Made by a program: the position numbers and the translations under genes. Positions 1,695 to 59,728 of a DNA stretch of 64,000 bases are shown piece after piece (the stretch's first letter is position 1; each line of letters starts with the position of its first letter). The notes below the pieces were generated by a model. The model searched no databases and was not told the DNA's origin. It saw nothing but the letters and a program-made list of their open reading frames with translations. The stretch comes from a phage: assembly GCA_024686575.1 (NCBI GenBank), contig GCA_024686575.1_4863.1. One strand, given 5' to 3'.

Positions 1695-2393
1695 TTAGGG
1701 TATTAGGCGTTGGGCTATTTCGCGGAGTTGGTCGCGGGTTAAATCAGCCAACTTCTGGTCGCCGAAGCCCAACTTCAGACCCAGCTCGTACCCAGCTTGC
1801 GGATACGTGTTCGTGTTTGCTACTGAGAGGAGTGCATCGGCTATCTTTACCATCGTTAACTCGAGAGACGCATACGGGGCGGGGATCGGCTGATTCACGA
1901 TTTGGTAATTATAACGCACTGCGGCGTTATCGTAGTCAAACTCCATCCTTCTGCCGAGAACGTTAAACGACTCCGCAGAATAACTACCAAGTGGGTGATT
2001 GGCTTTTTCCCACAAATCTTTCCGTTCAGTAAACCCAGTCGCGAAGTTCTGACGTATGGTGTCGAATATTTGCGTTGCCTGGCTAGGGTGTATATTTTTC
2101 AGCTCATTGTAGTCGTAGTCGGCGATGGAATATAGAGTGAACACAACACCGTTTATATTTAACTGCGGATAATCCATCCGCAGACTGTCATCACCTTGTA
2201 AATGAAGTTCCCACATCCTTACCCACTGCAATATCGCGCTTACCGCATCGTGACTGAGATAAAAATTAGTAGGTTCTTCAGGATTTTCACGGAAGGGAAC
2301 AGAGCATTCCGATACAAAAAAGCCGGCTGCCATAAATCCTCTGCCGTCGAACATAGGCGCAACTAATCTTGATTTTTCTAAATTGATTACCAT
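1695..2393 (-). CDS. hypothetical protein
   Basis: 232-aa ORF with ATG start preceded by AAGGAG at 6-nt spacing; 15-mer motif 41 nt upstream. Confidence 0.6.
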   Translation of the reverse strand: MVINLEKSRLVAPMFDGRGFMAAGFFVSECSVPFRENPEEPTNFYLSHDAVSAILQWVRMWELHLQGDDSLRMDYPQLNINGVVFTLYSIADYDYNELKNIHPSQATQIFDTIRQNFATGFTERKDLWEKANHPLGSYSAESFNVLGRRMEFDYDNAAVRYNYQIVNQPIPAPYASLELTMVKIADALLSVANTNTYPQAGYELGLKLGFGDQKLADLTRDQLREIAQRLIP

Positions 2394-6969: not shown

Positions 6970-7260
6970 TACGGGCAGTTTATGCGTCCTGCCGAGATCA
7001 AAAAAAATACGACGAACTATTTATATGCGTGGAATTACCCGAGTGCTAGAACACTCGGGTATAATTATTCCAGGCAAATATTCCTGTTATCTCTTGTTGA
7101 GTATTATCTCACCTCCTAGTCCTTTAATGGTACGGGTGGAAGTCTGCGGTTGGCGGGTAACCTCTTGCAGACGTTGTTGAAAAGCGACTTGTTTCAGCTG
7201 TTGCTGACGCAGTTGTTGCATAAAGGTATTCATGTTAACCTCTAGGTGGATGTGAATAAG

Positions 7261-15004: not shown

Positions 15005-15040
15005 AAACGCAAAAAAAAGAAAGGGAGCCGAAACTCCCTT
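15005..15040 (-). terminator. rho-independent terminator
   Basis: Hairpin AAGGGAG-CCGAAA-CTCCCTT preceded on the plus strand by an A-run (T-run on minus). Confidence 0.7.
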
Positions 15041-15046
15041 CGTGTT

Positions 15047-38686: not shown

Positions 38687-39022
38687 TTAACTTGCATCGT
38701 GTGGAACAGTCACCCAATCGTGCCATTTTTCAGAGTAAAGACGATAAGCCATCTTTGGATTCTGATCGACACTACCGGCCGGGTTCTCATTCCACAACAC
38801 GTACGTATATAACTCGTACGACGAAGTGTTACGGATACTTGACGTGCGGGTGACGTAGTACGTCAACCCGCGTTGGTTAAGGAACAGGCCGCTGTAATGT
38901 TCAGTGACCATGTAGTAGTGAAACGCCTGGTTGATAGTGGCGTCGGTACAGAGTTTCTTAGCGACGTCTTCTACGCCGGGATACGCCTTTAGAATGTTTT
39001 CGAGAAAACTTGCTAAAGTCAT
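38687..39022 (-). CDS. hypothetical protein
   Basis: Track ORF 38687..39070 overlaps the 3' end of the helicase gene; internal ATG (MTLASFLENIL...) reduces the overlap. Start and reality uncertain. Confidence 0.35.
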   Translation of the reverse strand: MTLASFLENILKAYPGVEDVAKKLCTDATINQAFHYYMVTEHYSGLFLNQRGLTYYVTRTSSIRNTSSYELYTYVLWNENPAGSVDQNPKMAYRLYSEKWHDWVTVPHDAS

Positions 39023-41702
39023 TCCGATGTAGGGTGGCAGCGGCTCTGCTGGACGCGGCGGAGTGAGCATGTGATTTCCTTACAACGTAGGGGGATGTCG
39101 CAATACGGAACGACAATACGACATCCTTGAGTGATTTCTGACGGGCATTCAGGTAATTGCAATGCTTCGGTACGTTATACGCATGGAATAACCACACCGT
39201 TGGGTCTATTTCACCCCATTCGTTGTGGAGAATCTTACGTGGACGACCGGCCATCTGTTCGTTCAGTTGCTGGTCTTCTACCGGGGTTGAGATGTACATG
39301 TGTACCAACCCAGGTTTATCGACCGCAGTCCCCGCTTTCCCCGGTGTGGAGATAGAGAAGTCTGCTTGGATAAAGTCGTCATACGAATCGCCTGCATTAT
39401 ATTTCGCCACCATCAGTGGATGGAATACAGGGTCACGCGATAACTTATCTTTCACATACTCGGTAAAGAACTCACACATCGCTACCGTAGCAAAGAGTAT
39501 CAAACATTTTTGGCCAGGCTGATACCGTTTAAGAAACGATTTCTCAACCACATCCCAGATCATGTTTGCGTATTCTAAATGCAAGTTCTCTTTAATCAGC
39601 TTCCCTTCGAAGAGCTTGTGGTTATACGGCGTCATCTTCGACGCCCACCACGCAAACTTCTTATCATCCAGTCGATAGTACAACGCCTTCACGTCAACCA
39701 CCGGAATGATTGGAATACTGATTCGGTACTCCATTGGGAAACGTTCTAAATACCGCTCCGCGATAAAGGCTTTACTGCTACCCGGCTTAAGAGTTGCAGA
39801 CATCTCTATCGATGCCGGCGGATTCAACATTATACCAGCCATGTAAACGAGGTGAAAATGCTCGTGCACCTCATCCATCGCCACCAGACCCACACCCAGA
39901 ACATCATAAAACGTATCCAGGTCCACAGGGTTAGTCGCAGCAGTGTTAATGTACTCCTTCAGGAAACGCTGTAGAGAGACCGTGGGGAGGATTATTACCT
40001 TAATACCACGACTATCTAGCTCTCCCGACTTACCCATCTCCAGTGCGTCGTAAATCGCCTGTACGCCTGTACAAACTAACACCTCGTCACGAAGTATACG
40101 AAGTCCTGTTTCATCATCACAGACGTCAAACAGCCATTTGGGAACGTACGACGGACGGTGAATCAATGCGGTACGGGTTCCCCGTTTAACCATCGACTTC
40201 ATACAGGTCTTGGTGTTGTGCGTAACAATCCACTGTCCCAGAACGTACAGATGTTCATCGTTGTCGACAGTAATGCACGAACCATGACTCTTCCCAACAT
40301 ACACGATAGACTTAACACGGAGTTTCAGTGTATCGTTGTATTGACCGTTGTCGCGACACAGCGCTTTCTTACGCGGGAGGTTGAACAGCATTGAAGGTGT
40401 CTTGTGCCTAATGAACACCATATAAGCCAATTTACCTTCTCTACGTTCTCCTTTGTAAGTAAAGAACGGACGTTTTGTGGATATAGTTGCAATACCACCT
40501 AACGATCTCACCAACTCCTGGACGCCCAACGCCAGCGACTCGCTGGTGCTACAATACGACGGCTGCCCTCCATCTTTATTCACGGTTCCGTCCGTGTCCA
40601 TTAAACCGCGCAGCAGCTCCCAGCGTTGCTCAATCGAGCCTTCAAAATATTCATCCGGAATATATTTTCTATCAGACCCTTTCCCTAGAAGACCGTGGTC
40701 CTGCAAATAGAGCGGCCAGGACATCGGCACTTCACGTCTGCGACGACGCATTCTATACTGATAACGATCGGCGGGAACCATCTCGGTATCGTCAGGTAAA
40801 TACTTCCTCACCAGCTCGACAGTTTCTGGATCGGCTGATGTGAAGCCTACCGCGCCATTTTCACAGGCGTGGCCGTTTCCCAAGAATGCCCCCATGAGAT
40901 ACGGATGTATTTTAAAGCACTTTTCACTTGTCTCTTCCGGTTCAGGTAACGGAATGTAGACTCGCGGGTTCGGCATTGCAATCAGTCGCTGAATTTCTTC
41001 CGTACTTCTTACCTGCCACCGAGTGTTTGGTGTGGTATTGACGTAGTAGGATTGCCAGAGATGCTCTTTACCGACCACAGTCTTACGTCCGTCAGCAAAA
41101 GTTATCTCGTAAAAATCCCAATCTTCATGCGGGTACACCGCCGTCACATTCGTCGGCTTCCCATCCCTACCGATTACCACATCCCCGACTTCTAGCTCTC
41201 CATGTAATTTCCACCCACCAGGAATCCTTACACGCTGATCCCATCTACAGACCTTTCCTCTTCCTGTTTGTATCGCGAAAACCGTTTGTGAACGCGATGG
41301 ATCTGTTGCGGCGGCTACGACTTCATTCTGATAATAGAAACGCGACTCTGGGTCTGTTTCTTCCATCTTGAATCCGTAATTATCAAACGTGCACTTATAA
41401 GGTTCTGCACGTTCAGGATGGTGCTCTGTTAGCTTGTACTGAAAAGCGTATTCAATTGCTGCTCGTTGGAGGATATGTTTAATCTTCTCAGCGAACACTT
41501 TATGGAAAATGAACGTCCTTAAAGACGGAATGTGAGCGTAGTACGCGTCACCGCGTTCCGTAGTTATTCGTCCATGTTGCTTGCCCATCTTTGGGGCGTG
41601 CATATTCTCTTCGGCCCACGCGAGTATGGCCCTTTCAGCCTGGCGGATAGGGACTTCAACCCGTACCCCCATACTCGTGTAAGTCATTTGAATTTCTACC
41701 AT
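38958..41702 (-). CDS. SF2 DExH-box helicase interrupted by an intein
   Basis: Extein motifs: P-loop-like QTGRGKV | TKT split by the intein, motif II LVAMDEVHEHF, motif III MSATLKPG, motif VI QMAGRPRKI. Likely start is M20 (MVEIQ..., ATG 41700-41702) because a terminator hairpin for the upstream gene lies at 41727-41745. Confidence 0.75.
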   Translation of the reverse strand: MVEIQMTYTSMGVRVEVPIRQAERAILAWAEENMHAPKMGKQHGRITTERGDAYYAHIPSLRTFIFHKVFAEKIKHILQRAAIEYAFQYKLTEHHPERAEPYKCTFDNYGFKMEETDPESRFYYQNEVVAAATDPSRSQTVFAIQTGRGKVCRWDQRVRIPGGWKLHGELEVGDVVIGRDGKPTNVTAVYPHEDWDFYEITFADGRKTVVGKEHLWQSYYVNTTPNTRWQVRSTEEIQRLIAMPNPRVYIPLPEPEETSEKCFKIHPYLMGAFLGNGHACENGAVGFTSADPETVELVRKYLPDDTEMVPADRYQYRMRRRRREVPMSWPLYLQDHGLLGKGSDRKYIPDEYFEGSIEQRWELLRGLMDTDGTVNKDGGQPSYCSTSESLALGVQELVRSLGGIATISTKRPFFTYKGERREGKLAYMVFIRHKTPSMLFNLPRKKALCRDNGQYNDTLKLRVKSIVYVGKSHGSCITVDNDEHLYVLGQWIVTHNTKTCMKSMVKRGTRTALIHRPSYVPKWLFDVCDDETGLRILRDEVLVCTGVQAIYDALEMGKSGELDSRGIKVIILPTVSLQRFLKEYINTAATNPVDLDTFYDVLGVGLVAMDEVHEHFHLVYMAGIMLNPPASIEMSATLKPGSSKAFIAERYLERFPMEYRISIPIIPVVDVKALYYRLDDKKFAWWASKMTPYNHKLFEGKLIKENLHLEYANMIWDVVEKSFLKRYQPGQKCLILFATVAMCEFFTEYVKDKLSRDPVFHPLMVAKYNAGDSYDDFIQADFSISTPGKAGTAVDKPGLVHMYISTPVEDQQLNEQMAGRPRKILHNEWGEIDPTVWLFHAYNVPKHCNYLNARQKSLKDVVLSFRIATSPYVVRKSHAHSAASSRAAATLHRNDFSKFSRKHSKGVSRRRRRR
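40215..41249 (-). mobile_element. intein (Hint domain) with a two-motif LAGLIDADG homing endonuclease
   Basis: 345 aa (residues 171-515 of the track ORF). N-terminal block CRWDQRVRIP...GELEVGDVVIGRDG and TxxH-like block; LAGLIDADG-like motifs PYLMGAFLGNGHA and LLRGLMDTDGTV; C-terminal blocks CITVDNDEHLYVL and GQWIVTHN followed by +1 Thr. Boundary codons checked on the nucleotide sequence. Confidence 0.8.
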
Positions 41703-41716
41703 GCTGCCCCTCTTCG

Positions 41717-41745
41717 CACAAAAAAAGAGGGGCGCAAGGCCCCTC
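41717..41745 (-). terminator. rho-independent terminator
   Basis: Hairpin GAGGGGC-GCAAG-GCCCCTC with a minus-strand T-run, directly after the beta'-like gene stop (41749). Confidence 0.65.
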
Positions 41746-41748
41746 GGT

Positions 41749-43854
41749 TTACAACTCAATTACCACAGCGGCTCCTAGGTCATCGTACAACGATGCCGGG
41801 ATTTTGTACTCGGTATAAAAACCAACGCGATCGATATTCCCCTGCTGTCCTTCAAACAACAACATCGGAATTGCCGAGCGCAAACTAATGAGCGTGTTGT
41901 GATCGACAAACCGTTTCCCTGTAGCGTTAGTAGAATCCTCACTGTCAAATCCTACTGCCGGGAACGGATTGGTTGGCGACTCTACACGAGATATCGCCAA
42001 CATAATCGCAATGTGCGTCATCGGTATACCACTCAGCTTACGCTGGATATACTTAAACGTGTCCATCAACGCATAAGTACACTGTTTCTCTGTAGCACCA
42101 CCCATTTCAACCAACGTCACCGGTTTCACACGACCTTGTTTCTTGTTCAGCTTCACAGTCGAGGCTGTGTTGATGATTTCCACAATGTCTTCGTTCTTAT
42201 CGGCAGCAATCGAACGGAGCTTGGTTTCTAAGCCGGCTACGAACTCCGCCATCGATTCAGAACGGTTGGTGTAGACCAGGACCGGGTGTTTCGGGTTCCA
42301 TCCTTTTAAGGGGATTTCTACCGTCTTCTTCTCGATACGAATGTTCGCTCGTTGTTTCAAGAAGTAGTGCAGGAACGGTTTAGAGAAGTTCCCACAAACA
42401 CCCATTCGCACATCGATAGAATCCGCAGCGATTATCTGCCCATCTTCTAAACGACGTTGGAAAGTTAAGTCGGTGATTTCTGGTAATGCCGTTTCATCAA
42501 TTGCATCGAGATCTTCATGATACGCAATCTGGCTCAGCTCCGAATAAACTTTGTCGGTAACAACCAACTCGTATTCTGACCAATTCCCACGCTGTGGTTT
42601 TGGCAGCAAGCACAACCCTTTCAGAGAGTTATGTTTGTATTCGGTCATATACTCACGCATACGTGGGGTGAGTACCAGGTTGAGCAGATAACGCAAGAAG
42701 TCAAGGTGCTTGGTAGAGAGAATTCCCTGTGTACCCTTTTCCGAGATGGACGTGGATGCCAGGTGACCTGGTGACGTACCTTCAGAGAGGTTATAAATCA
42801 AATCCCCCATACAGGTCGCACAGATGGACTGATTCGCCATCTCTTTACAGGTCATGGCACTACGGAAGACCAGCGGTTTGCCAACCAGGTCTGCGTATCC
42901 GCCTTTCTCAAATCGCAACCACGGACCATTATCGCCTTCTAAACGATAACGCATCCCCACCATCGCTTTATAGGCACGCTCATCCAGCTGCGTATCCTTA
43001 AACGTGTAGCGGTGTGCGTGTGTTGTACCGCAGTCGTCGTACGTGAAATACATCAGTACGTTTGCTGCCAGCTGCAGTTTACGTGAGGCGTATTCTGCTT
43101 CGGCAATCTTGTCAGTGTTGTACAGGTGGGAACGTGAAGTTGCACCAGATTCTTTCAAACGCGAAATAACCGAATGCATTCCGGTAAAGAAGCCTTCCCA
43201 CACCTGATTGGTGTATACACGTGAGTCAATTTCTGACGTTTTGCCGCGCACGAACGCTTGCAGTACCTGGTTCATCTTCACGGTACCGTCCAGTACCGAC
43301 ATTACGACTGGGTTATACCGCAGCGCAGGGTCTTTGAAGATTTTCTCGATAAGCTTATACGCTTCTTCAACCATATCCTGACCATCTTCATCGTAGCCAG
43401 TAGGATACTGCACTTCCCACTGACGGATGAGTTCGAAGTTCGGGTGGTCGTAGATCTCCATCATCGTATCAAAGTCGATTGTCGTACAATAGGACAGCAA
43501 GTTCTTCACTGTCATGTTGAACGCATCGGCGTAGACATGTTGACTCAGGATATAACGCGTTTCAGCAAGGTCGACACCTGCTTTACGGGCCAGTACCGCT
43601 GCTTCCGACATAAAGTCCAGATGCAGGTCATCTGTTGCTACCTGACCTGGACGATACGCCATGGTCGATGGAGTGGGCACCTGCGGATACAGACGCGACA
43701 CACCCCAATACGGCCAGCTGAGTTTGATGTGGCGACTAGACATTTCCAACGACTTACCATCGTCGAAAGTCACGTAATAACGCCCGCGTAGTTTCCACAC
43801 CTGATCAGAGTTAAGCATACGCAAATCACGTACGTGTACAGAACGACCCGCCAT
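41749..43854 (-). CDS. multisubunit RNA polymerase beta'-like subunit, C-terminal part
   Basis: 701 aa; STSISEKGTQGILSTKH resembles the beta' trigger loop (SIGEPGTQLTMRTFH); ATG overlaps the TAA of the upstream beta-like gene (TAATG). Confidence 0.6.
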   Translation of the reverse strand: MAGRSVHVRDLRMLNSDQVWKLRGRYYVTFDDGKSLEMSSRHIKLSWPYWGVSRLYPQVPTPSTMAYRPGQVATDDLHLDFMSEAAVLARKAGVDLAETRYILSQHVYADAFNMTVKNLLSYCTTIDFDTMMEIYDHPNFELIRQWEVQYPTGYDEDGQDMVEEAYKLIEKIFKDPALRYNPVVMSVLDGTVKMNQVLQAFVRGKTSEIDSRVYTNQVWEGFFTGMHSVISRLKESGATSRSHLYNTDKIAEAEYASRKLQLAANVLMYFTYDDCGTTHAHRYTFKDTQLDERAYKAMVGMRYRLEGDNGPWLRFEKGGYADLVGKPLVFRSAMTCKEMANQSICATCMGDLIYNLSEGTSPGHLASTSISEKGTQGILSTKHLDFLRYLLNLVLTPRMREYMTEYKHNSLKGLCLLPKPQRGNWSEYELVVTDKVYSELSQIAYHEDLDAIDETALPEITDLTFQRRLEDGQIIAADSIDVRMGVCGNFSKPFLHYFLKQRANIRIEKKTVEIPLKGWNPKHPVLVYTNRSESMAEFVAGLETKLRSIAADKNEDIVEIINTASTVKLNKKQGRVKPVTLVEMGGATEKQCTYALMDTFKYIQRKLSGIPMTHIAIMLAISRVESPTNPFPAVGFDSEDSTNATGKRFVDHNTLISLRSAIPMLLFEGQQGNIDRVGFYTEYKIPASLYDDLGAAVVIEL

Positions 43855-51381: not shown

Positions 51382-52038
51382 TTAGAGGAATTCGTCGTAA
51401 GAATCAGTGGTTGCTGGAGGTGCAGATTGTTGCTGTTGATAACCGCCGCCGCTGCGCTGACCACCACCCTGGCCACCGCCGTATCCGCCACGACCGAAGC
51501 TACCACCACCTTGCTGGAATTCACGCGGCTTATATTTCTCTTCCAGGTTCTGTAAGAACTTCTCGAAGTTAGTGATAAACGCACGTGCACAGCGCTCAGC
51601 AAGTTCTAAATCAGAAACCTGCTGGCCATCGCGGAAAATACGGAATCCTTTCGGGTAGGAGAAGTAGAACTTCTTCTGGCGGGCACCAACGCCCTGGATT
51701 TCACCGGCAATAGCGATGAACGGTACCAGGTTGTCTTCACGGCCAACAATCAGACTAACGGGCGGTTTGTTGCCGTTTTCGTTAGTAAACTTCAGCATAC
51801 TCTTTTCGCTCTTACGCAGACAATCCTGCAGAGCTTCGATAATGGTACGGCAAACCGTAATCGGTGCAGAGAAATAGAGACCTTCGCCCTTACCAAAAGA
51901 GTAGCTAAACTTCATAGTTTCAACATCACCGTTGAAATCATTCGGTTCAATGTTGAGTTTACGCGTACGGTTTTGCTGATCCGGTTCGGTCTGCGGGTAA
52001 AGCCATTTGTCTTTGAAAATTTCTTGGTTAATCATCAT
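51382..52038 (-). CDS. SSB-like protein (Gly/Gln-rich linker plus acidic C-terminal tip)
   Basis: Internal start MMINQ with AAGGA RBS. C-terminus GGGSFGRGGYGGGQGGGQRSGGGYQQQQSAPPATTDSYDEFL resembles the bacterial SSB Gly/Gln linker and acidic tip (…DFDDDIPF); the N-terminal domain was not recognised. Confidence 0.4.
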   Translation of the reverse strand: MMINQEIFKDKWLYPQTEPDQQNRTRKLNIEPNDFNGDVETMKFSYSFGKGEGLYFSAPITVCRTIIEALQDCLRKSEKSMLKFTNENGNKPPVSLIVGREDNLVPFIAIAGEIQGVGARQKKFYFSYPKGFRIFRDGQQVSDLELAERCARAFITNFEKFLQNLEEKYKPREFQQGGGSFGRGGYGGGQGGGQRSGGGYQQQQSAPPATTDSYDEFL

Positions 52039-52103
52039 TTCATCCTTTTCGGAAAAGCGGTCTAGTGGTTCACACATGATGTCCCACTAACGTAAATTTT
52101 AAC

Positions 52104-52940
52104 TTACTTCATAAGCCTGCGGAGCAGTTCAATTACAAATGGCTCATTCACCAGTTTTAGACAGTTATAAATACGGTCCATTGTGGTATCCTGTTTCCAG
52201 CTGTACTTCTCTGCGGTTTTTAACACCACCCCACGCGTTTTGCGATCGAGGGGTGAAAACATTATCCCGTCGCCAAACAACGTCAGGAACGCTTTGTTAA
52301 ACGGAATATGTTGGGGTTTCCCGTTAAGTTTGGTGTACCACTCCAGTTGCGTTTTCACTTTACCGGTATGTGATTCCAACAAACCCAGTTTAGGGAAATC
52401 TTTACGTGCCAGGAGATCAGCTGGCATGTGGGTCAGTAACAGTGTGTCGCGGCTACCCTCTGGGAAAACATCGAATTGACGGAAGTCATTTTCGTGTTTC
52501 TCACCGTACATCTTTAAAGTGTCGTGTTCCAGTGCATTATAGTGCAGCTGGTTTGGCGTCATCTTATCCTGACCGCCTGCAATGTTTTTGAACGAGGCTT
52601 CGGGAAACACTTTGTTAGCGCTACGATAGCTACAAAGGTACGGAACGCATAACACCGAAGGGGCTACCGCTCTCGCGGTAGCCGTAAGATTATTAATATC
52701 TTCTTCAATCGATGTTAGCATCACGTCGGGTGTTAACCGTTCTCTATTCTCTTCAAACGCATAGAAGGCGTTACGGAACAATGTCCGGAGATTCAGGTAT
52801 ATTTCCTGATAGGAATGGATAGGCAATTCGCCTTTCCAGTCGGCGTATTCGCCGGTATGCAGCAGACCTTCAAACGCCAGCGAACTGGCGATTGACACTG
52901 AATAGAACCCGAAAGTGCGATCAACACTGATTGGATTCAT
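52104..52940 (-). CDS. hypothetical protein
   Basis: 278-aa ORF overlapping the upstream gene by 4 nt. Confidence 0.5.
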   Translation of the reverse strand: MNPISVDRTFGFYSVSIASSLAFEGLLHTGEYADWKGELPIHSYQEIYLNLRTLFRNAFYAFEENRERLTPDVMLTSIEEDINNLTATARAVAPSVLCVPYLCSYRSANKVFPEASFKNIAGGQDKMTPNQLHYNALEHDTLKMYGEKHENDFRQFDVFPEGSRDTLLLTHMPADLLARKDFPKLGLLESHTGKVKTQLEWYTKLNGKPQHIPFNKAFLTLFGDGIMFSPLDRKTRGVVLKTAEKYSWKQDTTMDRIYNCLKLVNEPFVIELLRRLMK

Positions 52941-54088
52941 TCTATTTTCCTAATGATTGCAGTAACAACATCAGGGTCGTACTTCACTGATGTTAGCTCT
53001 TCGAGAACTAATCGTTCAAAGTTCTCAGGAGTAGGTTTTTCGTACACTGGGGCTTCGTTCGAAAAACTCTTCACTAACAACTCCTCTTCTTCAGAGGAGC
53101 GCACACGTTCTCCAGAAATGTGGAACGTGTATTCTTTTTTCCACCGACTAACATATTCGGCCATCGGTGAACCTGCGTAATACTCGACTTCAAATCGTCC
53201 AATAGCGGACGAAGGATGATTGTCGATGTATTCTAATGCAGAAAGACAAGCTGCTAACTGCGCATCAAAGTCTTCCTGTGCCCGAATCTTTTTCTGCGGG
53301 CACGCGCGTGGGTTAACCAGGAAATAGTCCCTGGCAACCGTATCGGTGAAATCGACAAGAGCTACGCCTTTGTCCTCCTCTTCACCTTGAGATAGTCGCT
53401 CAGGACTACCTACAACTCTTATCTTGTCTAATTCTTTAGGTCGATGGTCATGCCCGATAAATATCAGGTGCTTGACTCTCGGCAACCAGAACTCCTCGTG
53501 GAAAGAACGAGGGGACTCGACAGGGAGTTGAAACTGGAAGCAGCCGTGCATGAAGATAAAGTCTAACTTCTCCAAGCCTCGTGTCGCCATCAGTTCTGCC
53601 ATTTCTGCCTCAGTGGCAGCAGCATTAATTTCATCGACGCCAGCAGCTTTATATTCGTCCTGCACCCAACCTACCGTCGCATCGAGAGCCGGATCGTAAA
53701 ATATCCCGATCCCTGCCAAATACAAACAGTCTGCGCCTATACTGATGTTCAGCGACTCAACTATTTTGGACTGGCCGTGGTCATGGGACGGTGTTCCCTC
53801 AACGATGCGAACTGCGGTATTGGTGGCCTTAGACCACTGGAGCAACCACGTCAAGAAGCCCACAGCTTCTTGAGAATCTTCCTGGCGAAGATGTCGGGAA
53901 TCATCAAATAAATCTCCCGCTATATAAAAGGCATCAAGCGTATTTTCGCAGCTAATGAGTACCTCACGTATCACATCCACGATGTGCCAAGTAGGCACAC
54001 GCTTATGCAACAAATGGATATCATTAGTGTTCAAAAGGCGCTTAACGCCTTCTGGTTTCTTGGGAGGTTTAGTAATCTTCTCCATCAC
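52937..54088 (-). CDS. calcineurin-like metallophosphoesterase, Mre11/SbcD-type nuclease candidate
   Basis: 383 aa; phosphoesterase motifs in order and spacing: TNDIHL (D-x-H), IAGDLFDD (GDxxD), VEGTPSHDHG (GNHD-like), FIFMHGCF and IFIGHDHRP (GH/GHxH). Confidence 0.65.
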   Translation of the reverse strand: MMEKITKPPKKPEGVKRLLNTNDIHLLHKRVPTWHIVDVIREVLISCENTLDAFYIAGDLFDDSRHLRQEDSQEAVGFLTWLLQWSKATNTAVRIVEGTPSHDHGQSKIVESLNISIGADCLYLAGIGIFYDPALDATVGWVQDEYKAAGVDEINAAATEAEMAELMATRGLEKLDFIFMHGCFQFQLPVESPRSFHEEFWLPRVKHLIFIGHDHRPKELDKIRVVGSPERLSQGEEEDKGVALVDFTDTVARDYFLVNPRACPQKKIRAQEDFDAQLAACLSALEYIDNHPSSAIGRFEVEYYAGSPMAEYVSRWKKEYTFHISGERVRSSEEEELLVKSFSNEAPVYEKPTPENFERLVLEELTSVKYDPDVVTAIIRKIE

Positions 54089-54743
54089 CGATCCCTACGA
54101 TTGGCTGCGTTTGAGCTGGGGCTTGCACCGAAGTCTCTGCAGCTGTCGCCGTGTTTTTACCGCCGGTAATTTTATCGACGTATTCAACCAACCCTTCCGG
54201 ATATGGCAATTGACCACCCACACCGTAGCGTCGGAAAATCCAGTTCAGCAAGTCAATAATGTACTTCGCACGAACTGAATTTTCAGCCAGAGACATATTT
54301 TCGATCCCAGTTAGGGTGTAATCGATCATCTTGTACATCTGGGTTTCACCGACGGTTGCAATCACATCAACCTGACGACGGATGTACTCAGTCTCATCAG
54401 AGAGGGAAGGTTCGCCGTCAACGGTGATTAACGAGCGGCCGGTGTTCAGCAGAGCGGGGATGGTAAATAGCAGTTTGCTATTATCAGCATCGTCCACAAT
54501 CTGTAGGGGTACAAATGGACTTCCTACGTAAGCCGTCCAGGTCTCTTCGTTAAAAGTACCATCAAGCATCCCGGACAACAGTGGTAAGCCCTGACGTCGG
54601 AACTGTGCTTCGGTGAAGACGCTACAGACGTTCTGGCTTTCCGCCAAATCCTTTTCAATCTCTTTGAGTTTGTTATACTCAAAGCGCATCTGCTCATTCA
54701 TCTGGCTTAACGGTACACCGTTAAATGTAGGTTCCTGGCTCAT
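54069..54743 (-). CDS. hypothetical protein
   Basis: 224-aa ORF; start overlaps the upstream stop. Confidence 0.5.
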   Translation of the reverse strand: MSQEPTFNGVPLSQMNEQMRFEYNKLKEIEKDLAESQNVCSVFTEAQFRRQGLPLLSGMLDGTFNEETWTAYVGSPFVPLQIVDDADNSKLLFTIPALLNTGRSLITVDGEPSLSDETEYIRRQVDVIATVGETQMYKMIDYTLTGIENMSLAENSVRAKYIIDLLNWIFRRYGVGGQLPYPEGLVEYVDKITGGKNTATAAETSVQAPAQTQPIVGIGDGEDY

Positions 54744-55130: not shown

Positions 55131-55556
55131 TTAGCTCCTGTCAAATTCAAGGACGGAAATGTAATATTTGCCTGGTCGATAGTCCGCATACTTAACGGTG
55201 TCGACTTGATGGTAAACTTTTACACCCCGAAATGTTAACCAATGATATTTGATACTCAGCTTACGGCTAGCGACGAACTCCTCGTCTAACCGCCAGGCTT
55301 GTTCAGGAGGCACATCTAATCCAACGAGCAGATCCTTCTCATCTATCTCGAGATACGCACCATAATCACCAACCACCACACGGTTCCAACGTAGGCATAC
55401 AGATACACCGCCTATTGTGGCAGCCCTTACCTTATCGAACCCGTTTAAGTGTTGCTGATAAACTGACAAAGCTTCTTCACGCACTTTCTTGGGCAATGGT
55501 CGGTATCGATACCGTGCTGCCAAGCCCTCGATATACGCCAATATAGGATGCTGCAT
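55131..55556 (-). CDS. hypothetical protein
   Basis: 141-aa ORF; terminator upstream of its start region. Confidence 0.45.
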   Translation of the reverse strand: MQHPILAYIEGLAARYRYRPLPKKVREEALSVYQQHLNGFDKVRAATIGGVSVCLRWNRVVVGDYGAYLEIDEKDLLVGLDVPPEQAWRLDEEFVASRKLSIKYHWLTFRGVKVYHQVDTVKYADYRPGKYYISVLEFDRS

Positions 55557-57874: not shown

Positions 57875-59728
57875 TTACAGTTTGAAGTTGCTCAGAGACA
57901 CGCCCAGACCGAAATCGGAACCGCTTGCAGACAGGCCGTTGCCAGACAGCGTGAAGTCTTCCCCACCGTTGTTGAAGAACAGGGAGGTCGCCATCGTGTT
58001 GTAGGCATTTACACCAGTCATAGACCAGGTGCAGTTGTTACGGACGAAGTCCAGCAGGCATTTACCGAAGATCGGGTTGATAGCCATATCCAGAGATTCA
58101 CCGGTAGCTTGCGGTGCTTTGGATGCGAACAGAGAAGCGGCCAGTTTCAGCATGTAGATACGCTGCTGACGCTCGTTCAGTTCACGGTGGCTGTAGGACT
58201 GTGCGTTCAGGTAGCTATAGACGTCGTTCGCGTTATCACCCAGTTTGGTAACAACGGAAATCAGGTCCATATCCTGGAAGCTGCGTTTCTGTGCAGTACC
58301 GGTGTAAACACCGGAAACAGTCGGTACGGCTGCTTTCACGATGTGGCTGCAATGGATGGTACCATTGAAGGCATCGCCCAGCTGTGCTTTCAGTGCAGAA
58401 GCAAATACTGCAGTGAAGCTGGTCGCTGCAACAACTTCGCCGTTCTGATCACGCGGGGACATGGAATTCAGAATAGCGAGCAGCTGTTTCAGAGAGTTGT
58501 CGTAACCGACCGCAATTTCAGACAGCATAGTAGACAGACCACCCAGGCCGTTACCGGCACGATGGCTAACTACCAGTGCTGCTTCACGCGGTGCGAACAT
58601 ATCCAGGCAACCTTCGATAGCTTCACGGCTACCGTCGATTTTGGATACATCAGGACGAGCGTCAGCACCCCAGGACAGGTATTCTGCCACACGGGAGAAC
58701 TTGCGATCTTGTTTGTTCAGGCGTTTCACAAACAGGTCACGCCAGCCACCGATTGCCGCGATTTCTGCAAATGCAGCCAGCAGCAGCAGTTGACGTTCAT
58801 ACGGTGCCATTGCACCTTCAGTTTGAGAATCGACCAGACTTACTACGATTTCAGCCTGCAGCTGTTTCAGGTCGTAGACGCCGTTAACGACAGGCTTCTG
58901 ACCGGTGAAACGCATATTGACGAAACCGGTACCGGATACACGCGGATACACCTGTACCTGATTGGTGTCCAGCAGAGTCGGAGTGGCATCGGTTACGTTG
59001 CTTGGGCTGTGCTCAACGGTGATTGCGAAATCAGCACGTTGTGCGTGGCCGTTAGCATCCACAACCGCGCCATCTTCCAGCGGCATTACTGAGGCCTGAT
59101 AACGGTCATGCTTACGCAGGTTCAGTGTACCCAGGTAGCCTGCGATACGACCGAAGATTCCCATCATCATCTGACCCATCAGGGTACGTGCCCACTCAGC
59201 ATCCAGAACTTTACCCAAGTCTGGTACGGAGTTGATGATCATGAAGTTCGCATTGGTCAGACCATGCGCTTCCATGATGTTTTTCTGTACTACTGCCAGC
59301 ACGTCTTTGTTGAACAGTTCAGTGATGGTGTAGTAGTCTTCCTGGCCGTTGTTGGTGGTTTCTTTCAGACGCAGAGACTGACCGCGTTCAAAGAAGATAA
59401 TACCGTACAGCCAGTGGCCCTGCCATTGGCCTGCGACGTACGCCGCGGAACCCATTTCGTTACCCACGCCGACGATGGTGCCCCAGCGGAATGCGTTGAG
59501 GTATTCGTTGCTTTTCTTCAGCTCATCCAGGAGGTTGGTGAAGTGCATTGCATAAGTGCTGATGTTGCGGATGCCAAATGCGTTATCGAATTGGCTGACA
59601 GTAGAAGTACCCGGCACAGCAGTTTGCACTTTTACAGTCTCGTTGCCCAGACCGCCCAGTGGTGCGGTGTCTTGAGTCTGAGTGTTGTTCTGCTGAGCGT
59701 TGTTGTTAGAGTCAACGATTTTTACCAT
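57875..59728 (-). CDS. abundant-protein candidate (nuclear-shell-like or major structural protein); function unassigned
   Basis: 617 aa; ATG with AAGGA RBS; two copies of the 15-mer motif upstream (59774-59788, 59868-59882) and a terminator-like hairpin downstream; Gly/Ser-rich C-terminus. Confidence 0.6.
   Translation of the reverse strand: MVKIVDSNNNAQQNNTQTQDTAPLGGLGNETVKVQTAVPGTSTVSQFDNAFGIRNISTYAMHFTNLLDELKKSNEYLNAFRWGTIVGVGNEMGSAAYVAGQWQGHWLYGIIFFERGQSLRLKETTNNGQEDYYTITELFNKDVLAVVQKNIMEAHGLTNANFMIINSVPDLGKVLDAEWARTLMGQMMMGIFGRIAGYLGTLNLRKHDRYQASVMPLEDGAVVDANGHAQRADFAITVEHSPSNVTDATPTLLDTNQVQVYPRVSGTGFVNMRFTGQKPVVNGVYDLKQLQAEIVVSLVDSQTEGAMAPYERQLLLLAAFAEIAAIGGWRDLFVKRLNKQDRKFSRVAEYLSWGADARPDVSKIDGSREAIEGCLDMFAPREAALVVSHRAGNGLGGLSTMLSEIAVGYDNSLKQLLAILNSMSPRDQNGEVVAATSFTAVFASALKAQLGDAFNGTIHCSHIVKAAVPTVSGVYTGTAQKRSFQDMDLISVVTKLGDNANDVYSYLNAQSYSHRELNERQQRIYMLKLAASLFASKAPQATGESLDMAINPIFGKCLLDFVRNNCTWSMTGVNAYNTMATSLFFNNGGEDFTLSGNGLSASGSDFGLGVSLSNFKL

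Follow-up and report, generated by a model that had tools for sequence, protein, structure and literature searches.

The gene at 52937..54088 (minus strand) of the window, i.e., of the whole 64,000-nucleotide stretch of phage DNA analysed here, most probably encodes SbcD, the nuclease subunit of a phage SbcCD (Mre11-Rad50) complex, whose SbcC partner is encoded about 90 kb away. We put the probability of this reading, which draws on analogy with well-studied SbcCD complexes, at about 90%. The separate location of sbcC and sbcD is the rule in phiKZ-like phages and has been known since 2016, when gp27 and gp186 of the Salmonella phage SPN3US were identified as the SbcD and the SbcC subunit, respectively, and the two genes were described as 'drastically separated' in SPN3US, phiKZ, and their relatives (Thomas et al. 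2016, J Virol, PMC5105663). The evidence comprises the family assignment and fold of the nuclease, the presence of a complete SbcC in the closest relatives of the phage, and the co-occurrence of both genes in about 300 phiKZ-like phage genomes.

The nuclease and its source phage

The ~3-kb stretch around the nuclease gene shares 98.6-99.0% nucleotide identity with the Salmonella phages SaP7, SEGD1, and SPN3US, which belong to the genus Seoulvirus and have genomes of about 240 kb; SaP7 is the closest match to the window. The annotated complete RefSeq record of SPN3US was used for comparison, and its region from about 11.5 to 74.3 kb aligns with the whole window in reverse orientation, except for a few indels. 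Judged by its sequence, the source is an SPN3US-like, phiKZ-related Salmonella jumbo phage. About 650 bp at window positions 1703-2350 do not align with SPN3US; there, the matches on either side are separated by about 40 bp only. Conversely, about 270 bp of SPN3US (67600-67872) are absent from the window at 7061-7085 and about 630 bp (59021-59651, including a small gene at 59048-59638) at 15032-15046. A 391-bp insertion relative to SPN3US at 55152-55544 carries a 141-aa ORF (55131-55556, minus strand), which is placed between the homologues of SPN3US ACQ60_gp242 and gp241 and had no match in PHROG. Several records of SPFM Salmonella phages align merely as 30-40 short fragments in which ORFs are broken, a pattern suggestive of error-rich assemblies.

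Three further genes of the window deserve mention. The helicase ORF at 38958..41759 (minus strand, 933 aa) contains an in-frame insert of about 346 aa (about 40215-41252) with a LAGLIDADG domain, which starts just past the Walker-A residues GRGK and ends with VTHN directly before a threonine; the SPN3US gene is uninterrupted at this site (QTGAGKSKS), and the insert looks like an intein splitting the P-loop. A 617-aa protein (57875..59728, minus strand) is encoded at the position of phiKZ 054 (chimallin), and a 231-aa protein with a Gly/Arg/Gln-rich C-terminal tail (51382..52077, minus strand) at the position of phiKZ 067 (ChmC). Neither product had a match by BLASTP to phiKZ 054/067 or by phmmer against the PDB, and the labels chimallin and ChmC are guesses from gene position.

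The nuclease ORF proved to be real; it is located on the minus strand and comprises 383 aa when counted from a GTG codon. An ATG at 54085, one codon 3' of the GTG, is preceded by a better-spaced Shine-Dalgarno sequence (AGGGA), gives a protein of 382 aa, and is the start annotated in the RefSeq record of SPN3US; it is likely to be the true start. sbcD is packed tightly between its neighbours: at its 5' end it overlaps with the upstream ORF 54069..54743, and at its 3' end its stop codon shares nucleotides with the ATG of the next ORF (ATGA at 52937-52940). The product is 99.7% identical to the SPN3US protein named gp27 by Thomas et al. 2016 and annotated in RefSeq as ACQ60_gp239 ('SbcD-like subunit of palindrome specific endonuclease'); the two are in essence the same gene in closely related phages. 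It is a homologue of phiKZ 065 (PHIKZ065; 34% identity, BLASTP E=2e-31). The gene sits in a block with the phiKZ gene order 055, 062, 065 (SbcD), 066, 068, and 070. Both SPN3US (gp27/gp186) and phiKZ (gp065/gp165) have the same remote location of SbcC.

The original assignment to the Mre11/SbcD nucleases is supported by several methods. In PHROG, the protein matches phrog_100 ('SbcD-like subunit', E=2e-64), and in Pfam the Metallophos family was matched with a sub-threshold score only (E=0.038). A search of the PDB with the single sequence (phmmer) yielded noise and no relative, for which reason a profile was required. When the query was a profile of 32 homologues, the search retrieved the Mre11 proteins of Thermotoga maritima (E=6e-8) and Pyrococcus as well as E. 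coli SbcD (E=3e-6), the matched structures including 2q8u, 3qg5, and 6s6v. The confident AlphaFold2 (AF2) model of the protein (pLDDT 91.4, pTM 0.82) was compared with the PDB by Foldseek. The best 12 matches were all Mre11/SbcD proteins, with TM scores of 0.6-0.7 and E values down to 3e-14; E. coli SbcD (7yzo_A) gave E=3e-14 and the T. maritima Mre11 core (3thn) a TM score of 0.71 (normalized to target length), whereas the next, non-Mre11 matches, which are generic metallophosphoesterases, were about four orders of magnitude weaker. The model shows the Mre11-type fold of a phosphoesterase and a capping domain, the latter deduced from the full-length alignments. On the strength of profile and predicted structure, the product of 52937..54088 is a member of the Mre11/SbcD family and presumably an active nuclease.

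The conservation of the phosphoesterase motifs was scored across 32 homologues with identities down to 26%. Motifs I, II, IV, and V are present with their Asp/His metal ligands and align to the corresponding motifs of Mre11/SbcD. Motif I (D23-I-H25, 54014..54022, minus strand, as for all motifs) is invariant and aligns with the D-x-H of T4 gp47 and E. coli SbcD. In motif II (G58-D59-L-F-D62, 53903..53917), which aligns to the GD-x-x-D of Mre11, G58 is invariant and D59 and D62 are conserved in at least 90% of the homologues. Motif IV (H181-G182, 53543..53548) is again invariant, and so are H213 and H215 of motif V (G212-H213-D-H215, 53444..53455); G212, H213, and H215 are also invariant in an alignment of eight sequences that includes T4 gp47 and E. 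coli SbcD.

Canonical Mre11 proteins have a motif III of the form G-N-H-[DE], which provides an asparagine as metal ligand in addition to a catalytic histidine. The motif III of the phage protein (G98-T-P-S101-H102-D103, 53780..53797) departs from this form, and the original claim that all phosphoesterase motifs are present in the right order thus has to be qualified for motif III, which lacks the asparagine. GTPSHD replaces GNHD in all 32 aligned homologues and in phiKZ 065, with G98, T99, H102, and D103 invariant and S101 conserved in at least 90% (L or R in homologues P0041 and P0046). In the HMMER alignment with T. maritima Mre11, TP forms a two-residue insertion and Ser101 occupies the position of the metal-binding asparagine, while the catalytic His102 and also Asp103 are retained. 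Because the asparagine is missing, the two-metal site may differ from that of canonical Mre11. This variant looks unreported, as limited literature searches found no mention of it.

At its C-terminus, the AF2 model contains two helices (residues 357-364 and 372-382, 52943..53020, minus strand), which are preceded by a flexible linker of low confidence, seen as a dip in pLDDT. The full-length Foldseek match to 7yzo_A, E. coli SbcD as part of the SbcCD head complex, extends over 409 alignment columns against a chain of 381 residues, and the predicted helix pair lies at the position of the helix-loop-helix by which Mre11/SbcD proteins bind Rad50/SbcC; it may serve the same purpose here. The SbcD of E. 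coli and the Mre11 proteins of Thermotoga and Pyrococcus, which are the best structural matches (7yzo_A, 3qg5_C, 3thn), resemble the phage nuclease, as modelled, in motif order, full-length match, and C-terminal helix pair, and their partners resemble the phage SbcC in motif layout and hook. They differ in the canonical asparagine of motif III, in sequence (16-19% identity), and in that their genes are organized in operons, with overlapping genes in E. coli. T4 gp47 also has the canonical GNHD motif and is only 18% identical to the window nuclease (MAFFT); a similarity detectable by BLASTP was found to be lacking (PMC5105663).

The gene downstream of sbcD

The ORF whose ATG overlaps the sbcD stop codon (52104..52940, minus strand) is translationally coupled to sbcD and encodes a 278-aa homologue of phiKZ 066 (BLASTP, E=5e-32) with a predicted FEN/5'-3'-exonuclease-like fold. 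The PHROG family of the protein has no assigned function, there was no match in Pfam, and a profile of its family had none in the PDB. Alignment of the family to T4 RNase H by hhalign gave a probability of 1%, with no sequence similarity and no usable alignment. The AlphaFold model, however, has a pLDDT of 95.2, and in this predicted structure the protein adopts a FEN/5'-nuclease (PIN-like superfamily) fold. Members of the FEN/5'-3' exonuclease superfamily bind their catalytic metals by seven to eight conserved acidic residues. A canonical cluster of this type is not evident in the family of the 278-aa protein, in which E189 is the only invariant acidic residue and E24, E138, D175, and D224 are nearly invariant; it may represent a divergent or non-catalytic FEN member. 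In phiKZ, 066 has been listed as an 'Uncharacterized' core gene with a weak knock-down phenotype (PMC12571901), and flap-nuclease homologues have been described in other groups of jumbo phages, the phiKZ group not being among them (Iyer et al., PMC7824862). A limited literature search found no FEN assignment for the phiKZ 066 homologues, and the FEN-like fold of the sbcD neighbour looks unreported.

Homologues of phiKZ 066 occur in 301 phage records, distributed over the host genera in the same numbers as SbcD, and in every genome with comparable positions the gene is located directly downstream of sbcD and co-oriented with it; the genomes sampled were those of phages of Pseudomonas, Erwinia, Klebsiella, Serratia, Vibrio, Aeromonas, and Burkholderia. 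The 278-aa protein may be a functional associate of the nuclease. A stronger form of this idea holds that SbcD also works with the FEN-fold protein as a two-nuclease end-processing module, which would be compatible with a function in SbcCD. Mre11 and Exo1 in eukaryotic resection and the FEN1-like recombination nuclease of poxviruses offer loose analogies. In its favour are the overlapping stop and start codons (ATGA), the matching distribution of the two genes, their preserved adjacency in phages of many host genera although SbcC drifted away, and the core-gene status and weak knock-down phenotype of phiKZ 066. On the other hand, the order of the 055-070 block of phiKZ is kept in SPN3US, and the adjacency may only reflect the conservation of this block; the neighbour has no sequence similarity to T4 RNase H, its single invariant acidic residue leaves room for a non-catalytic protein, and the removal of Okazaki primers in lagging-strand processing would be an equally good guess for its role. 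On balance we regard the module as unlikely. The same low standing applies to the more far-reaching proposal that the conserved genomic partner of the phiKZ-like Mre11 nuclease is the FEN-fold protein rather than Rad50, and that the GTPSHD motif might be an altered metal site adapted to such a two-nuclease module.

The SbcC partner

Within the window, the nuclease gene has no Rad50/SbcC partner. The original observation that no large Walker-A/coiled-coil ATPase ORF flanks sbcD holds: a tblastn search of the window with the SPN3US SbcC protein gave chance matches only (E>2), and the large neighbouring ORFs that were scanned matched a helicase, RNA polymerase subunits, or phage families of unknown function and no ABC/SMC ATPase. 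A regular expression for the Walker-A motif had zero matches among the window ORFs of 200 aa or more; at least for the helicase 38958..41759, this is due to the putative intein in its P-loop, and the tblastn search was taken as evidence instead.

A different picture emerges for the remainder of the genome, which was searched in SPN3US and SaP7 and in both cases contains a Rad50-like ATPase gene that is not adjacent to sbcD. In SPN3US, the partner gene is located at 168900..171410 and encodes gp186, a protein of 836 aa annotated as 'putative SMC domain-containing protein'; its distance from sbcD is about 90 kb by the shorter path and 147 kb in record coordinates. In SaP7, sbcD (142627-143775) and sbcC (235578-238088) are 91.8 kb apart. 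The implication of the original prediction that the nuclease might lack a partner was therefore wrong. Loss of sbcC in the phage from which the window derives was considered and rejected, the gene being present in all 37 SPN3US-like records matched by megablast, including SaP7. In the records of Proteus phage 7 (MT679221) and MET_P1_082_240 (OQ383623), sbcC is labelled 'nuclease SbcCD subunit D'.

The gp186 protein matches phrog_77 ('SbcC-like') of PHROG over its full length (E=4e-96), and its best sequence matches in the PDB are archaeal Rad50 ATPase heads. It contains a Walker A motif (GGNGCGKT) at position 36, a Walker B motif (LLLDEP) at 761, an H-loop (VVSHE) at 797, and a single CPQC motif at 413 of 836, i.e., in the middle of the protein; of the ABC signature motif SGGE/Q, only a degenerate form (GSKAQ) is present. 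These features characterize gp186, at the sequence level, as a Rad50/SbcC ABC-ATPase with a split head and a central CxxC zinc hook. The motif positions were located directly; an alignment with T4 gp46 and E. coli SbcC by MAFFT failed to align the hooks, and the coiled coil of gp186 was judged from composition. The same layout is found in phiKZ gp165 (CPSC at 412 of 830), T4 gp46 (CPTC at 288 of 560), and E. coli SbcC (CPLC at 506 of 1048). T4 gp47/gp46 is likewise a phage Mre11/Rad50 pair, represented by the same families phrog_100 and phrog_77 and with a central CxxC hook in gp46, although T4 gp46 comprises 560 aa only and its coiled coil is about half as long as that of gp186 (PMC5105663).

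The distribution of both proteins was analysed by tblastn against 50,697 phage records, which revealed SbcD in 301 and SbcC in 300 of them. The counts per host genus are nearly identical, for example 81 for Pseudomonas, 62 for Erwinia, 35 for Salmonella, and 23 (SbcD) versus 22 (SbcC) for Vibrio phages. In all 25 genomes in which both genes could be placed, the shorter separation was 37-123 kb. By comparison, T4 genes 46 and 47 are 443 bp apart and sbcD and sbcC of E. coli overlap. The contrast to the usual paired arrangement exemplified by T4 gp46/gp47, to which the original prediction had pointed, is thus a real one.

A stand-alone Mre11-like nuclease that functions without any Rad50/SbcC ATPase, as the original prediction implied, would fit the absence of an SbcC-like ORF from the 64-kb window and the fact that sbcC and sbcD were never linked in the 25 placed genomes of the phiKZ-like family. 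It is nevertheless very improbable in view of the complete SbcC/Rad50 with zinc hook in the same genome, the co-occurrence of the two genes in about 300 genomes, and the C-terminal helix pair that, according to the structural model, is kept at the position of the Rad50-binding domain. Moreover, phiKZ 065 ('Nuclease') and 165 ('SbcC-like nuclease') are both core genes, and antisense knock-down of either one reduced the number of plaques (PMC12571901).

Proposed function and significance

That the gene product is a generic calcineurin-like phosphoesterase, such as a phosphatase or an LpxH-like pyrophosphatase, and not a DNA nuclease can be dismissed almost entirely: the sub-threshold Metallophos score, the non-canonical motif III, and one metagenomic homologue automatically named LpxH by JGI could be cited for it, but the 12 top-ranking structures are all Mre11/SbcD and align along the entire protein, with the regions that follow the phosphoesterase domain included, the matches to LpxH and purple acid phosphatase are weaker (E ~1e-4) and confined to the phosphoesterase core, and LpxH reached an E value of only 0.08 in the profile search against the PDB, compared to 6e-8 for Mre11.

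As the nuclease subunit of an SbcCD complex, the protein would act in the manner known from T4 gp46/gp47 and E. coli SbcCD. The metal-dependent nuclease sites would reside in a dimer of SbcD, which a second dimer, that of the ABC-ATPase SbcC, would clamp onto DNA ends; the long coiled coils of SbcC would be joined at the zinc hook. Binding and hydrolysis of ATP would control both the endo- and the exonucleolytic cleavage of ends and hairpins in DNA. The products would enter recombination-dependent replication and the repair of the phage genome, as is the case for T4 gp46/47. A complex of gp27 and gp186 would presumably act in the phage nucleus, given that the related phage Asesino builds such a compartment.

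The presence of unlinked sbcD and sbcC genes is a re-discovery of an annotated feature. PhiKZ-like phages are known to scatter functionally linked genes. For the SbcC subunit, essentiality has been demonstrated by an amber mutant of SPN3US gp186 (PMC5105663), and orf165 of phiKZ tolerates no transposon insertions (PMC12676376); the SbcD subunit is probably essential as well. According to Iyer et al. 2021 (PMC7824862), practically all jumbo phages have SbcC and SbcD. Since the 'drastic separation' of the two genes has been published and is ordinary for the phiKZ-like family, the finding as such is of low interest. It does teach the caution that the lack of a partner gene in a 64-kb window says nothing about its absence from a genome of 240 kb. 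As the replication and recombination machinery of nucleus-forming phages is still poorly defined, the two by-products of the analysis, i.e., the FEN-like fold predicted for the core protein encoded beside sbcD and the unusual motif III of the nuclease, might be of interest to those who study it.
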